Assembly (NCBI GenBank): GCA_963713185.1
Contig: CAVQKV010000007.1
Location: 18,537 to 82,536, forward strand
Direction of reading: 5' to 3'
DNA from: an uncultured Actinomycetes bacterium
GTDB taxonomy: Bacteria > Actinomycetota > UBA4738 > HRBIN12
Length of the DNA: 64,000 nucleotides
A program made the translations under genes and the position numbers. Below the pieces are notes generated by a model. The model was not told the origin of the DNA and did no database searches. It was given only the letters and a program-made list of their open reading frames with translations. Every line of letters starts with the position of its first letter. Position 1 is the stretch's first letter. Of this stretch, positions 12,909 through 18,981 are shown one piece after another.

Positions 12909-13637
12909 GCCACGGACCGAGCGCGCCGCGGAGCCCGTGGCACTCACCCGCCATCCCCGGCGCGTCCGCTGGTTCCACGCGGCGATCTACCTGACCACGA
13001 TCCCGCTCCTGTGGACCGGATGGTGGCTGCTGTCGGGCGAGGAAGGGAGTCCGAGCTTCCTCGCCCGCGTGTTCCACGTCGCCGACGTCCGGGTGCACGT
13101 GTGGGCGGGGCGGGTGCTCGCGCTGCTCGCGATCGCCGCGATCGCGTTCGGGCGCCGGGGGGTTCGGACGTTCGTGCGGGAGACGCTGCGCCGCGACCCC
13201 GGCGACGCGCGGTGGTGGGTGAGGTGGCCGGCCGCCGTACTGACCGGACGCTTCGCGCGCCACGAGGGCGCGTTCGACCCCGGCCAGCGCGTGGCGAACG
13301 TCGTGATCGTGGGTGGGTTAATCGTCCTCACGACGACCGGCATCGCGCTGACGCTGTTGCACGGCGGACCCGCTGTTCGCCTGGCTGGCGAAGGTCCACC
13401 TGTGGACCGCGGTCGATCGTGACCCCGGTGATCCTCGGTCACGTGCTCGTCGCGCTCGGCGTGCTGCCCGGCTACCGGGGGGTGTGGCGTTCGATGCACC
13501 TCGGCGGGCGGGTACCCGAGGAGACCGCCCGGCGCGTGTGGCCGGGATGGACCGAGCGGACGCTCTCGGACGCGAGACCGACGGACGACCGCGAGACGGG
13601 GACGGCATCACGCCATCCTCGGGGTGCTGGGGTCTAG
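12898..13637 (+). pseudogene. cytochrome b561 / Ni-Fe hydrogenase b-type cytochrome-like membrane protein, two frame breaks
   Basis: ATG 12898 overlaps the upstream stop (ATGGCTACTGA). The protein-like sequence changes frame at ~13378 (LFAWLAKVHLWTAV) and again at ~13412 (VTPVILGHVLVALGVLPGYRGVWRSM...), ending at 13637. Confidence 0.55.
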
Positions 13638-15874
13638 TCGAACAGCGCGTCGAACGCCCGCAGCGTGTCGCCCAACCGGCCGGCCAGCGTCGTCGCGAGC
13701 CAGCGGTGCAGCGCCGCGGCGAGCTCGGGCTCCTCGGCCTCCATCCGCGCGATCGACTCCTGGGACAGCCGGAGGACCACGCTCGGGGTCTCGGCCACCA
13801 CGTCCGCCGTGCGCGGGACCCCCGTGTACATCGCGACCTCCCCGACCACCACACCCGGGTGCATCGTCCGCAGGCGCATCCGCGTCCCCAGGGCCGTGAG
13901 GATCTCGACCCGCAGCCGGCCGGACTCGAGGACGAACACGTCGTCGGGCGACTCGTCCTGGTGGATCAGCACGGTCCCTTCCGGGACCGTCACACGCTCG
14001 AGGTAGGTCCGCAGGCCCCGCGGCATGCCGGCGAGCCCGGCCTCCGCGGACGGCACCGGCTCGGCACCGGCGTCCTCGAGCAGCCCCTCCTCGCAGCGCT
14101 GGAGTCCCCGATCCAGGTCCGGCTCGAACCGCAGGACCGCGGACGCGCCCGCCCCCCCACGCTCGAGCTGCCTGCGCACCGGGTCCGAGACCCCGGTGAA
14201 CACGAGCTCGAACCCGTTCGCCTCCGCCAGGTGCGTGACCTTGAGGAAGGACACCACCGCCGAGGAGTCCACCCCGGTCACCCGTCGCAGGTCGATCACC
14301 AGGAACCTCGGCGGTGCCGCCTCCACGCGCTTTCGGATCCGCTCGAGCAGGCCGTTGGCCGACCCGAAGAACACGAACCCGTTCAGGCGCAGGATCTGGA
14401 CGCGGTCGCCCATGGCCCGTAGCGCCGCTCGCTCGGTGGGCGGACGGTCCACGTTGCTGTGGTAGGTCTCCCCGAAGGAGACCTCGCGCACCAGCTCGAT
14501 CCGGCCGTAGCTGACCGCGAACAGGACGACCGCGAGCACGAGCCCGAGCACGACCCCGGGCAGGAACCCCCGGGCGATGATCGCCGCCAGGATCACCAGG
14601 ACGACCCCGTACTCCACCGGCGGCAGGGTCCGCCGCTTGTCCCAGACCCACTCGACCAGGAAGGCGAGGCCGAGGAACACGAGCACGCCGCCCACGATCA
14701 TGCGCGGGATCAGCTCGATGACGGCGGCGCCGAACACGACCGCGGCGAGCGGGACCGCCGCGGCGATGAGCCCCGCGGCCCGCGCGTTCACCTTCATGCG
14801 CTCGGCGAGCGCGCTCAGGCTGAGCGCGTGGTAGCCGGGGATGCCGCCGAGCGCGCCGGAGATCACGTTCAGCACCCCGGCGTCGCGCAGCTCCTCGTTC
14901 GTTTCCAGGTCCCGGTGCAAGATGATCTCGGTCCCGCTGATGTTGAACAAGATCGCAAGCACGGCCACGAACACGGCGGTGGCGATGCCCGCCCACTGGC
15001 CGAGCACCGCCGACCAGTCGGCGCCGGTGAGGGCTCGAAGGGTCCACGGCTGCCACAGGCGAACCGACTCGAAGGGTCCGAGCAGCCACCGCCCATGCCG
15101 AGCGGCATCGAGCGACGAGCCCGTCACGAGCATGCCGATCGCGAACAGCACGAGCCCGATGCCGATCACGATCGGGATGACCAGCGGCTTCTTCAGCTGC
15201 CGGACGGCCACGAGCAGGATCACGCCGAAGGCGAACGCAGGCACCCAGTGCTTGAGCGTCACCGGGCTGCCCAGGAGGCCGATGGTGCGCAGGTGCACCT
15301 CCACACCGGAGGAGACGTAGATGCCGCCCTTCAGGAGCAGCCACCCCGTGCCGGCCAGGAAGCCGCCGACGACCGGGTACGGCACGAACCGGACCAGGTT
15401 GCCGAGCCGGAAGGTCCCGAGCGCCGAGAAGACGAGACCGCACAGGACCGTCACGACCAGCGTCGCGGCGACGACGGTCAGGAAGATGTCGGGCGTCTCG
15501 AACGCCCCGACGCCTGCGGTCTCGGCGACCCTCACGATGGCCGCGGCCTTCGAGGCCGTGCTCGCTGCCACGATCGCGAGCACGGCCGTCGCGGCGTCCT
15601 GCACGCTGCCGACGACACCTCGGGAGCCCGCCCTCCAGGCGAGGAACCCGAGCGTGAGCGCGGCCGCAACGAGGTACAGCCCGATGCCGTCCGCCAGATC
15701 ACCCACGAGCACTCCGCCGAACACGAAGGCGGCGAACGCGACCGCGAGGACCACCTCGACGCCGCCGATGATCACCCCCGCGACCAGCGAGGCGAGCACG
15801 CCGGATCGTCGCTCCTCTGACGGCGACCCGCCTCCCCTGGAACCCAGGCGAGGCGACTCCATCTGCACATCCAT
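13634..15874 (-). CDS. SulP-family anion transporter with STAS and C-terminal cyclic nucleotide-binding domain (copy A)
   Basis: 746 aa starting at MDVQMESP, with GGAGAG upstream. SulP core (FVPYPVVGGFLAGTGWLL), STAS (ILRLNGFVFFGSA...VIDLRRVTGVDSSA) and CNB (GEVAMYTGVPRTADVVAETPS). The rest of the 1499-aa ORF is a shadow of copy B. Confidence 0.9.
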   Translation of the reverse strand: MDVQMESPRLGSRGGGSPSEERRSGVLASLVAGVIIGGVEVVLAVAFAAFVFGGVLVGDLADGIGLYLVAAALTLGFLAWRAGSRGVVGSVQDAATAVLAIVAASTASKAAAIVRVAETAGVGAFETPDIFLTVVAATLVVTVLCGLVFSALGTFRLGNLVRFVPYPVVGGFLAGTGWLLLKGGIYVSSGVEVHLRTIGLLGSPVTLKHWVPAFAFGVILLVAVRQLKKPLVIPIVIGIGLVLFAIGMLVTGSSLDAARHGRWLLGPFESVRLWQPWTLRALTGADWSAVLGQWAGIATAVFVAVLAILFNISGTEIILHRDLETNEELRDAGVLNVISGALGGIPGYHALSLSALAERMKVNARAAGLIAAAVPLAAVVFGAAVIELIPRMIVGGVLVFLGLAFLVEWVWDKRRTLPPVEYGVVLVILAAIIARGFLPGVVLGLVLAVVLFAVSYGRIELVREVSFGETYHSNVDRPPTERAALRAMGDRVQILRLNGFVFFGSANGLLERIRKRVEAAPPRFLVIDLRRVTGVDSSAVVSFLKVTHLAEANGFELVFTGVSDPVRRQLERGGAGASAVLRFEPDLDRGLQRCEEGLLEDAGAEPVPSAEAGLAGMPRGLRTYLERVTVPEGTVLIHQDESPDDVFVLESGRLRVEILTALGTRMRLRTMHPGVVVGEVAMYTGVPRTADVVAETPSVVLRLSQESIARMEAEEPELAAALHRWLATTLAGRLGDTLRAFDALFD
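14106..15056. repeat. 951-bp near-identical tract shared with 16415..17365 (offset 2309)
   Basis: The ORF-track translations in three frames are identical between the copies apart from single changes (R/K and A/P). The flanks of both genes are clearly diverged. Confidence 0.9.
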
Positions 15875-15882
15875 CGGCTCTC

Positions 15883-18207
15883 CTAGTCGAGCAGGGCGTC
15901 GAACTCCCTCTGGGTGTCGCTCAATCGCTCCGAGAGGATCCTCGCGAGCCACCGATGCAGCGCCGCGGCCAGCTCGGGCTCCTCGGCCTCCATCCGCTCG
16001 ATCGCCGCGCCGCTGAGCCGCAGGACCACGCTCGGCGTCTCGGCCACCACGTCCGCCGTTCGCGTCACGCCCGTGTACATCGCGACCTCGCCGACGACCA
16101 CGCCGGGGTTCACCCTCCGCACGCGCATCTGGGTCCCGTCGGTCGTCACCATCTCCACGCTCAGTCGGCCCGATTCCACGACGAACAGATCGCCCGGCGG
16201 TTCGTCCTGTCGGATCAGCACCGTGCCCTCGGCCAACGGCATGCGCTCGAGGTAGCCGCGCACGCCGGGCGGCAGGTCGGCGAGCACGCCGCTCGACCCG
16301 TCCGAGGACGCCACCCGGTCGGCACCGATCTCGACCGCACGGCCGCCGACCCCGCCTTCGACCCCATCCCCGACGGGGCCGACCTGGAGCAGACGTTCCT
16401 CGCACCACTGCAAGCCCCGATCCAGGTCCGGCTCGAACCGCAGGACCGCGGACGCGCCCGCCCCCCCACGCTCGAGCTGCCTGCGCACCGGGTCCGAGAC
16501 CCCGGTGAACACGAGCTCGAACCCGTTCGCCTCCGCCAGGTGCGTGACCTTGAGGAAGGACACCACCGCCGAGGAGTCCACCCCGGTCACCCGTCGCAGG
16601 TCGATCACCAGGAACCTCGGCGGTGCCGCCTCCACGCGCTTTCGGATCCGCTCGAGCAGGCCGTTGGCCGACCCGAAGAACACGAACCCGTTCAGGCGCA
16701 GGATCTGGACGCGGTCGCCCATGGCCCGTAGCGCCGCTCGCTCGGTGGGCGGACGGTCCACGTTGCTGTGGTAGGTCTCCCCGAAGGAGACCTCGCGCAC
16801 CAGCTCGATCCGGCCGTAGCTGACCGCGAACAGGACGACCGCGAGCACGAGCCCGAGCACGACCCCGGGCAGGAACCCCCGGGCGATGATCGCCGCCAGG
16901 ATCACCAGGACGACCCCGTACTCCACCGGCGGCAGGGTCCGCCGCTTGTCCCAGACCCACTCGACCAGGAAGGCGAGGCCGAGGAACACGAGCACGCCGC
17001 CCACGATCATGCGCGGGATCAGCTCGATGACGGCGGCGCCGAACACGACCGCGGCGAGCGGGACCGCCGCGGCGATGAGCCCCGCGGCCCGCGCGTTCAC
17101 CTTCATGCGCTCGGCGAGCGCGCTCAAGCTGAGCGCGTGGTAGCCGGGGATGCCGCCGAGCGCGCCGGAGATCACGTTCAGCACCCCGGCGTCGCGCAGC
17201 TCCTCGTTCGTTTCCAGGTCCCGGTGCAAGATGATCTCGGTCCCGCTGATGTTGAACAAGATCGCAAGCACGGCCACGAACACGGCGGTGGCGATCCCCG
17301 CCCACTGGCCGAGCACCGCCGACCAGTCGGCGCCGGTGAGGGCTCGAAGGGTCCACGGCTGCCACGACTGGCGGTCGTCGAACGGACCGAACAGCAGCCA
17401 GTTGCCCGACCTCGCACCCTCGAGCGACGAGCCCGTCACGAGCATGCCGATCGCGAACGCCACGATCCCGATCCCGATCACGACCGGGATCACGAGTGGG
17501 TTCTTCACCACCCGCGTCGCGACGAGCAGGATCACGCCGAACGCTACCGCGGGAAGCCACAACTGCAGCACCCTCGACTCCGTCAGGTCGCCGATCGTGG
17601 CCAGCGATGCCGCCTCGCGCGAGGCGACGGCGATGCCGCCCTTCAGCAGCAGCCACCCCGTCCCCGCGACGAACCCCCCGACGACCGGGTAGGGGACGAA
17701 CCTGATCAGGTTGGCGCGCTTGAGCGTCCCGAGCACCAGGAACACGACGCCGCACAGGACGGTCACGACGAGCGTCGCGGCGACGACCGTGAGGAAGGCT
17801 CGCTCGGGGCCCCCGAACGCGTCGAGGGCCGTGGTCGTCGCCACGATCGCGAGCACGGCGGCCACCGTCCCCTGCAGGCTGCCGACGACCCCGCGGAGAC
17901 CCGCCCGCCACGCGAGGATCGCGAGCGTCAGCGCTGCCGCTCCGAGGTAGAGGGTGATCGCATCCGGGAGGGAATCCTCGAGATAGCCCCCGAACACGAA
18001 GGCGGCGAACGCGACCGCGAAGACCGTCTCGATGGCACCGATGACCACGCCGGCCGCGAGCACGGCGAGCATCCCCTCGGGTCGTCGCTGTCCGACCACG
18101 GTCCCTCCCCCTGAAAGCGGACTGTAGGCGCAAGCGCGGTCGAGCGCATGCGGTCGAGGGCCTGACCCACCCGAACGCCCAGACGCAGGGAGCCCCTCCG
18201 TCGCCAT
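15883..18207 (-). CDS. SulP-family anion transporter with STAS and C-terminal cyclic nucleotide-binding domain (copy B)
   Basis: 774-aa ORF collinear with copy A and carrying a 20-aa longer STAS-CNB linker. The true start may be an internal codon near MLAVLAAG. Confidence 0.9.
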   Translation of the reverse strand: MATEGLPASGRSGGSGPRPHALDRACAYSPLSGGGTVVGQRRPEGMLAVLAAGVVIGAIETVFAVAFAAFVFGGYLEDSLPDAITLYLGAAALTLAILAWRAGLRGVVGSLQGTVAAVLAIVATTTALDAFGGPERAFLTVVAATLVVTVLCGVVFLVLGTLKRANLIRFVPYPVVGGFVAGTGWLLLKGGIAVASREAASLATIGDLTESRVLQLWLPAVAFGVILLVATRVVKNPLVIPVVIGIGIVAFAIGMLVTGSSLEGARSGNWLLFGPFDDRQSWQPWTLRALTGADWSAVLGQWAGIATAVFVAVLAILFNISGTEIILHRDLETNEELRDAGVLNVISGALGGIPGYHALSLSALAERMKVNARAAGLIAAAVPLAAVVFGAAVIELIPRMIVGGVLVFLGLAFLVEWVWDKRRTLPPVEYGVVLVILAAIIARGFLPGVVLGLVLAVVLFAVSYGRIELVREVSFGETYHSNVDRPPTERAALRAMGDRVQILRLNGFVFFGSANGLLERIRKRVEAAPPRFLVIDLRRVTGVDSSAVVSFLKVTHLAEANGFELVFTGVSDPVRRQLERGGAGASAVLRFEPDLDRGLQWCEERLLQVGPVGDGVEGGVGGRAVEIGADRVASSDGSSGVLADLPPGVRGYLERMPLAEGTVLIRQDEPPGDLFVVESGRLSVEMVTTDGTQMRVRRVNPGVVVGEVAMYTGVTRTADVVAETPSVVLRLSGAAIERMEAEEPELAAALHRWLARILSERLSDTQREFDALLD
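16415..17365. repeat. partner copy of the 951-bp tract at 14106..15056
   Basis: Same evidence as the partner tract. Identity starts at ccccgatccaggtcc and ends at ggctgccac in both copies. Confidence 0.9.
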
Positions 18208-18270: not shown

Positions 18271-18981
18271 CTACCTACCGGAACGTGTCGGGCTCATCGC
18301 GCGCGCCTCGCGGGCCAGTCGACGCGCGAGACGGATCGGCTCCGGCGTCCGGTACCGACCGGTGACGCCGCGTACCACGTCGAGCGCAACAGCCGCGTCC
18401 GTCCGCCACGCCGCGTGCACCATCACAGGTCGGGCGCCGCGGCGCGTTCGGAGGGCGGCTCCGACGATCTCACCACCCAGGACGAGCGGAGCCGACAACC
18501 CTCGGTCGGCTGCCGGCTCCACCGGCGCCGCGATCAGCGGTCGGACCGTCACGCCGACGGTCGGCACGTCGAGCACCGCGCCCAAGTGCAGCGCGATGCC
18601 GGCCCGGCGAGGATGATCCAGCCCCGTGCCGTTCACGAGCACGACGTCCGGCGTGAGCCTCAGTGTCCGGATGGCTCGCTCGAGCAGCGGCCCTTCGCGA
18701 AGGGCAAGGAGGCCCGGCACGTAGGGACCTCCGGCTCGTCCGTGAACGGCGGTCGAGCTGAGCGGCCCCGGTTCGCCGGCGACGAGCGCCACCGCGGCAA
18801 CCCACAGCGGATCGCCGGCGCCGCCGATCCCGACGAGACCGACGGGCCCGGCCACGAAGGCGCCCGCCACGACGAGGCGCCGTTCGGGATCGGGCCTCCA
18901 GATCCGTGGTTCGAGGCGAGCGAGCCGCTGCTGGAGCGCCTCGAGCTCCCCGGGCGCCGTGGGCCAGCCGATAGGTGTCAC
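18271..18981 (-). CDS. nfi: endonuclease V (deoxyinosine 3' endonuclease)
   Basis: Motifs YVPGLLALREGP and VNGTGLDHPRRAGIALHLG, plus length, match the Nfi family. Confidence 0.85.
   Translation of the reverse strand: MTPIGWPTAPGELEALQQRLARLEPRIWRPDPERRLVVAGAFVAGPVGLVGIGGAGDPLWVAAVALVAGEPGPLSSTAVHGRAGGPYVPGLLALREGPLLERAIRTLRLTPDVVLVNGTGLDHPRRAGIALHLGAVLDVPTVGVTVRPLIAAPVEPAADRGLSAPLVLGGEIVGAALRTRRGARPVMVHAAWRTDAAVALDVVRGVTGRYRTPEPIRLARRLAREARAMSPTRSGR

Follow-up and report, generated by a model that had tools for sequence, protein, structure and literature searches.

Concerted evolution of paralogous genes is well documented in bacteria, in tufA and tufB of Salmonella, in the rRNA operons, in pilE and pilS and in the PE/PPE genes, and Walsh's model describes an escape from such conversion by divergence. 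The fusion of a cyclic nucleotide-binding (CNB) domain to the C-terminus of a membrane protein is known from the K+ channel MloK1 and the bCNG channels of the MscS type. It is shared by the two genes considered here, designated B (upstream) and A (downstream), which lie on the minus strand of a 64,000-nucleotide stretch of DNA from an uncultured Actinomycetes bacterium (contig CAVQKV010000007.1 of assembly GCA_963713185.1). Each encodes a membrane domain of the SLC26/SulP family of anion transporters, followed by a STAS domain and a cyclic nucleotide (cNMP)-binding domain. The whole stretch is termed the window and all coordinates are given in its numbering; the genome under study is G000, and other genomes and loci are cited by such identifiers where they must be told apart. 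A and B are very probably old tandem paralogues in which gene conversion repeatedly overwrites one central module, comprising transmembrane helices (TM) 8-14 and the core of the STAS domain.

The identity tract in genes A and B

The genes were described in a first-pass annotation, made from the sequence alone, as a head-to-tail pair 8 bp apart with the same three-part architecture, and both proteins do score above the Pfam cut-offs for the domains concerned. The central observation of that annotation, a 951-bp tract at an offset of 2309 with only two differences between the copies, proves to be exact. The offset is constant throughout, and both mismatches are synonymous (Table 1). The 5' parts and 3' ends were correctly said to be diverged: the 5' parts align at offsets of 2312 and 2273, and the 3' ends at an offset of 2249, with a 60-bp (20-codon) indel in the linker between the STAS and CNB domains, where B is the longer. 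Identity is far from uniform along the genes, with 2 mismatches in the 951 bp of the tract compared with flanks that are about 70-85% identical, and mismatches are dense directly beyond both tract ends.

The longest exact run shared by A and B is 712 bp. As 10,000 shuffles of the 325 differences produced no run longer than 99 bp, chance is excluded as the source of this run, and the analytic P value is about 1e-47. Outside the tract, the longest exact runs common to the two genes are 20-28 bp. The nonsynonymous (dN) and synonymous (dS) divergence between A and B is 0.27 and 0.48, respectively, in the segment encoding TM1-7, 0.000 and 0.008 in the tract, and 0.22 and 0.53 in the C-terminal segment. 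Since dS is so low in the tract and so high on either side of it, the identity is not the product of constraint at the protein level.

The two remaining differences can be polarized by comparison with relatives. At the first (14818/17127), B carries a derived singleton; the compared copies in relatives have the state found in A, save one with a third base. At the second (14987/17296), it is the state in A that is derived relative to almost all relatives. New mutations since the last homogenisation, or errors left in the sequence, would give this pattern. GC-biased conversion is not visible, as the G+C content at third codon positions is already 0.90-0.99 in every segment of every copy.

Table 1. 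Features of the transporter gene pair, in window coordinates.
Feature	Position	Strand	Basis or remarks
Gene B (upstream copy), 774 aa; SLC26/SulP membrane domain, STAS and C-terminal cNMP-binding domain	15883-18207	(-)	Open reading frame, translation, Pfam
Gene A (downstream copy), 746 aa; same three-domain architecture	13634-15874	(-)	Open reading frame, translation, Pfam, AlphaFold2, Foldseek
Spacer, 8 bp, from B stop codon to A start	15875-15882	(-)	Sequence
Conversion tract in A, codons about 274-590; loop before TM8, TM8-TM14 (second inverted repeat), STAS core	14106-15056	(-)	951 bp, 2 mismatches to B; helices from model
Conversion tract in B, partner of the A tract	16415-17365	(-)	dN 0.000, dS 0.008
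Diverged part of A, TM1-TM7 (first inverted repeat); about 74% nucleotide identity to B; last codons overlap tract start	14872-15802	(-)	
Phosphate-binding cassette of the cNMP-binding domain of A (G678 E679 ... R688 T689 A690)	13805-13843	(-)	
Tract difference 1, G in A and A in B	14818 (A), 17127 (B)	(-)	Synonymous
Tract difference 2, G in A and C in B	14987 (A), 17296 (B)	(-)	Synonymous

Segment trees and the recurrence of conversion

At least 13 further genomes of the genus carry the head-to-tail pair, as do several other genera of the same family, and a more distant tandem pair occurs in another family of the phylum. Across the phylum, 301 genomes were sampled, and 14 of them encode the protein. 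Those relatives that carry names are metagenome-assembled genomes (MAGs) from soil, namely the 'uncultured Actinomycetes' of Microflora Danica and one 'Sporichthyaceae bacterium'. The duplication is older than the radiation of the genus and probably older than that of the family.

Two side observations concern the distribution of the pair. The tandem pair from the different family (L054, G265:C195:1-5000) encodes proteins with 41% and 37% identity to A; either the pairing is much older than the family or it arose more than once. The MAG G002 contains three separate tandem pairs, L034 (C3), L035 (C5) and L036 (C7), two of which, on small contigs of 41-51 kb, are similar to those found in other species of the genus. 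Either contamination during binning or a genuine multiplication of the pair could account for this.

Both copies were excised from the relatives and aligned, trees were built for each segment, and identities between paralogues were compared over 18 genomes. In the TM1-7 tree, a single branch separates all upstream from all downstream copies, so that one change of label (upstream or downstream) is needed where about 12 would be expected; none of 500 label shuffles gave a value as low. The tract tree is quite different. It requires 14 label changes, and well-supported branches force no fewer than 12 of these. In 8 of the 18 genomes both copies group as sisters, with the support given in brackets: G000 (100/100), G003 (100/99), G017 (100/98), G297 (98/96), SMAG (99/96), G310 (100/100), G006 (99/89) and G044 (93/85). 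Monophyly of the upstream copies in the tract is rejected by the approximately unbiased (AU) test (delta lnL 1237, p=0.0002). The tree of the C-terminal segment is intermediate, with 7 label changes. The identities between paralogues follow suit, ranging over 64-76% in TM1-7, 67-100% in the tract and 63-92% in the C-terminal part.

The timing of conversion can be read from comparisons between closely related species. Within a genome, the two copies of the tract are 99.8% identical in G000, 98.0% in G007, 99.8% in G003 and 99.6% in G017. Between species, tract identity is 95.4-96.5% for G000 and its closest relative G007, about 95.4% for G003 and G017, and 86% for G000 and G003; dS between tract orthologues is about 0.10 in both of the close pairs (G000/G007 and G003/G017). 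Tract copies of the same genome are thus 10-50 times less diverged than orthologues. A single conversion before speciation would leave same-genome copies at least as diverged as orthologues, which is not seen. Instead, the tract sequences indicate conversion after speciation in each of these four species, and hence conversion that is independent in at least four species.

The 5' edge of the tract falls at alignment column 950 in G000 and G007, 951 in G011, 960 in G003 and 969 in G017. The 3' edges range over codons 572-599 of A. At alignment columns 1849-1904 the two copies of G007 differ from each other, and both copies of G000 show the state of the upstream copy of G007. This pattern implies that the G000 tract is about 60 bp longer than that of G007 and that B was the donor there.

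The two copies of another genus, at L050 (G297), are 94% identical in the tract and 92% identical in the CNB region, with exact runs of at most 120 bp, which means that the sensor domain at the C-terminus can be subject to conversion as well. A separate observation concerns the comparison of G000 with G007 (L025; window 15883-17365). The TM1-7 segment of the upstream copy is only 86% identical at the nucleotide level (dS 0.25), whereas that of the downstream copy is 96.6% identical (dS 0.07) and the other segments have dS values of 0.10-0.14. The high divergence of the upstream TM1-7 segment suggests allelic replacement through recombination with a more distant lineage.

Taken together, these data support the view that A and B encode SLC26/SulP-family anion transporters, each with a STAS and a CNB domain, that they form an old tandem pair with translational coupling, and that non-reciprocal recombination of the RecA type between the copies has repeatedly overwritten the second inverted repeat (TM8-14) and the STAS core. 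In this view, the last event in this genome is very recent, with one new synonymous change per copy since, and the transfer ran from B to A, at least at the 3' edge of the tract. TM1-7 has been homogenised in no genome examined, and the linker and CNB domain only occasionally. The fixed 5' boundary would follow from the need of recombination for exact identity, such that each event stops where the previous one ended. RecA-dependent exchange needs a minimum of about 20-28 bp of exact identity. Because the exact runs in the flanks reach only this length, a mechanically frozen boundary is the simplest explanation, and selection for distinct TM1-7 halves may add to the effect.

The first-pass annotation had proposed recent gene conversion between older paralogues. 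The dS values, the incongruent trees, the AU test and the wide occurrence of the pair all uphold that proposal, but not as a single event, for the process is recurrent.

Selection, assembly artefact and other explanations

One could suppose that selection keeps the central module identical, with A and B forming heterodimers through TM13/14 and STAS and convertants with a matched interface being favoured, whilst TM1-7 and the CNB tether are kept different and so give either protomer transport or regulatory properties of its own. In the structures of SLC26Dg, SLC26A9 and prestin, the contacts of the SLC26 dimer lie in elements within TM8-14 and STAS. It is TM8-14 and STAS that the tract covers. 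The apparent translational coupling of the pair and its conservation as a unit while its neighbours change would also suit such a model, as would the narrow identity range of TM1-7 in all 18 genomes beside the broad range of the middle, and a 5' boundary that stays within 20 nt across independent events. A frozen boundary is nevertheless expected without selection, as flanks that are 25% diverged, with exact runs of at most 28 bp, block strand exchange. Moreover, the central module is only 67-79% identical in G044, G001, G008 and G016, and identity is thus not required. Selection on the module is unlikely to be the explanation. A more specific version holds that the pair is an obligate or preferred SLC26 heterodimer, in which conversion is retained to match the dimer interface and gate scaffold, and in which differing TM1-7 halves and CNB tethers give different substrate or nucleotide responses. 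This version is decidedly doubtful; if true, the pair would be the first SLC26 transporter known to be both heteromeric and gated by a second messenger, and concerted evolution would here maintain a protein-protein interface.

An assembly or polishing artefact, whereby similar central regions were collapsed into one consensus that was written into both genes, is highly improbable. G000 is a MAG of 10 contigs with 73% completeness, few-contig relatives carry frameshifts typical of long-read consensus errors, and all four full-length near-identical tracts come from few-contig assemblies, as might be expected of such an artefact. Indirect evidence speaks against it. Each gene is intact, and two differences between the copies persist inside the tract. 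The tract sequence is also species-specific, since G000 and G003 differ from one another at 14 sites in every hundred and yet show near-complete identity within each genome, and the pattern is found in four independent MAGs. Few-contig assembly alone does not create identity, because other few-contig, probably long-read MAGs of the genus (G016, G014 and G002) keep 75-93% identity in the region. Full examples are confined to few-contig assemblies because short-read MAGs that contain both full genes must lack long identical tracts. Finally, a MEGAHIT contig assembled from Illumina data only, from a relative (JBAVEY010000133.1, 'k127', 2442 bp; L043/L020), loops at the same boundary. It carries the end of an upstream copy and the start of a downstream copy, with an exact 127-bp terminal repeat from the tract boundary, which is the de Bruijn loop expected when the tract is identical between copies.

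Frameshifts were noted at several loci in their own right. At L025 (G007), L037 (G017), L031 (G016) and L034-L036 (G002), the genes are split over two to three frames by single frameshifts. Frameshifts in an otherwise clean protein sequence are typical of long-read consensus errors rather than of decay.

A fresh duplication with very fast divergence of the ends, or identity due purely to purifying selection on the protein, is ruled out by the dS values and the segment trees: in unconverted genomes, constraint is indeed strongest in the central module (dN 0.16-0.21, compared with 0.37-0.42 in TM1-7), but synonymous sites are almost unchanged in the tract and near saturation in its flanks, the upstream and downstream copies have orthologues across genera, and edges this sharp are not made by gradients of constraint.

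Some points weigh against recurrent conversion of a coupled transporter pair as set out above. The branch of the TM1-7 tree that separates upstream from downstream copies is weakly supported (34/53), though the clustering of labels is far from random. It is possible that a consensus or polishing artefact has erased a small true divergence of, say, 1-3%; a true tract identity of 97-99% would leave the conclusion unchanged. No promoter-like site was found at the locus. With regard to function, the curated NCBIfam cut-offs are not reached, the scores being 97.8 against 380.45 for sulP (TIGR00815), 53.4 against 880 for BicA and 59.5 against 614 for DauA, and because these scores lie so far below the cut-offs a substrate cannot be transferred from SulP, BicA or DauA. 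The proteins thus fall outside every subfamily with a defined function.

With recurrent conversion as the preferred explanation, the pair offers a natural experiment in which half of a membrane domain escapes conversion while the other half, together with the STAS domain, is re-homogenised, and in which the boundary is almost fixed at the junction of the inverted repeats. It could be used to study the limits that divergence places on recombination, or how selection might split a protein into shared and private modules. There is also a practical consequence: in this transporter family, orthology assignments and trees that draw on anything beyond TM1-7 will mislead.

The transporters, their setting and known systems

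In B, the Pfam domains Sulfate_transp, STAS and cNMP_binding span residues 51-418, 498-585 and 658-739, respectively. Sulfate_transp scores of 84.9 bits for A and 73.1 bits for B, compared with a Pfam cut-off of 23.2, place both proteins in the SLC26/SulP superfamily. The STAS domain scores 57.3 bits (cut-off 22.6) and the cNMP_binding domains 65.2 and 63.3 bits (cut-off 27.5). An AlphaFold2 model of A (pLDDT 91.6, pTM 0.86) has 14 transmembrane helices in a 7+7 arrangement followed by STAS and CNB domains, with TM1-7 at residues 25-251, TM8-14 at 294-456, STAS at about 460-601 and CNB at 609-745. The top 48 Foldseek matches to the model are all SLC26 proteins, and prestin, pendrin, SLC26A2/3/6/7/9/11, plant SULTR and fungal SulT are among the matches. 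Against SLC26Dg and BicA, the membrane domain reaches target-normalised TM-scores of 0.73-0.75, and identity to solved structures is 13-20%.

The phosphate-binding cassette G678-E679 ... R688-T689-A690 is found in both copies, and within it A and B differ only by P687T. Among 107 diverse family members, the glycine is conserved in all 107, the glutamate in 106, the arginine in 91 and the alanine in 103. The CNB profile of the family aligns with the CNB domains of PKG, PKA, CRP and SthK (E about 1e-17 for SthK). By these sequence features, the domain is a cNMP-binding domain of the CAP/PKA type with an intact cassette, predicted to bind cAMP or cGMP. The genome contains 24 matches to class III cyclase domains above the Pfam cut-off in 2.08 Mb (73% complete), and its cyclase repertoire is unusually dense. 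cAMP or cGMP made by these cyclases would probably bind the cassette and modulate anion transport through the STAS domain. Four class III cyclase domains were noted in the window itself, at about 32555, 39788, 41442 and 46972 (G000:C7:51091, 58324, 59978 and 65508 on the contig), 15-30 kb from the pair.

Differences between A and B lie elsewhere than in the cassette. At its N-terminus, TM3 has the sequence QDAAT in A but QGTVA in B, compared with a family consensus of QD; in SLC26 structures, TM3 and TM10 form the anion site. The parts of the CNB domain outside the cassette differ, and the STAS-CNB linker of B is 20 residues longer. It is plausible that A and B differ in substrate or kinetics. 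The suggestion that distinct CNB domains would tune the two copies to different ligands fares less well, as the contact motif is the same in both but for residue 687, and the cassette gives no support for a difference in nucleotide specificity.

The architecture itself is very common. Scoring covered 1,755 close relatives that have the same three Pfam domains, and at E<=1e-30 the family extends to 2,224 clusters at 50% identity; nearly all of the best 150 clusters are full-length through the CNB domain. No PDB entry with a SulP-STAS-CNB architecture was found in structure, profile and Foldseek searches, and a full-text literature search for SulP/SLC26 proteins with a cNMP-binding domain found no study of it, in keeping with the first-pass annotation's view of this architecture as uncharacterised. 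There is thus a very large group of proteins that join SLC26 to a cyclic-nucleotide sensor, without a study found, in bacteria rich in cyclases, and control of anion transport by a second messenger is testable in them.

The layout of the genes suggests that B and A are translationally coupled. B ends with a TAG codon at 15883-15885 and A starts with ATG at 15872-15874; the ribosome-binding site that precedes the latter, GGAGAG (15878-15883), overlaps the B stop codon. The spacing is similar in relatives, where 5-18 bp separate the ends of the tblastn matches to the two copies. A 1499-aa open reading frame (13634-18133) was considered as an A-B fusion and rejected: the frame of A stays open through B in a frame different from that of B, owing to the 71% GC content of the DNA.

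Upstream, a gene for endonuclease V (nfi; 18271-18981, minus strand) ends 63 bp before B on the same strand, so that the pair and nfi may share a transcript. The relatives examined do not show this arrangement. Downstream, and convergent with the pair, are a cytochrome-like gene, a lipoprotein gene and an extracytoplasmic function (ECF) sigma/anti-sigma pair. The closest relative shares only the downstream side and other relatives share neither. The conserved unit is the pair itself, and the neighbourhood, considered as a clue to function, was rejected as such. Two terminator-like matches were discounted as chance matches inside paralogous coding sequence.

Set beside known systems, the kind of process is an established one, and the architecture is annotated, with no study of it found. 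Like the bacterial SLC26/SulP proteins BicA, SLC26Dg, DauA (YchM) and Rv1739c, A and B combine Sulfate_transp and STAS domains and have a membrane domain of 14 helices (7+7), in which the model of A shows short strands preceding TM3 and TM10. Unlike them, A and B add a C-terminal cNMP-binding domain, and they share only 15-20% identity with the solved structures.

Like the K+ channel SthK, A and B are membrane transport proteins that have a CNB domain of the CAP/PKA type fused to their cytoplasmic C-terminus. In contrast to MloK1, SthK and bCNG, however, their membrane part is an elevator-type SLC26 carrier rather than a tetrameric pore, and their CNB domain follows STAS instead of a C-linker. 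They do not belong to the CNG/HCN/MloK1/SthK group, as the membrane domain is that of SLC26 and there is no tetrameric 6-TM pore-loop domain. By analogy, A and B may be regulated in the manner of cyclic nucleotide-gated channels without being members of that group.

A literature search on conversion between bacterial tandem paralogues found nothing specific to this situation. As in the established bacterial cases of concerted evolution, A and B are homogenised non-reciprocally within a genome and cluster by genome instead of by orthology. Unlike those cases, homogenisation of A and B is confined to one structural module, the same module in many species, whilst the adjacent half of the membrane domain has escaped it for the whole history of the pair.

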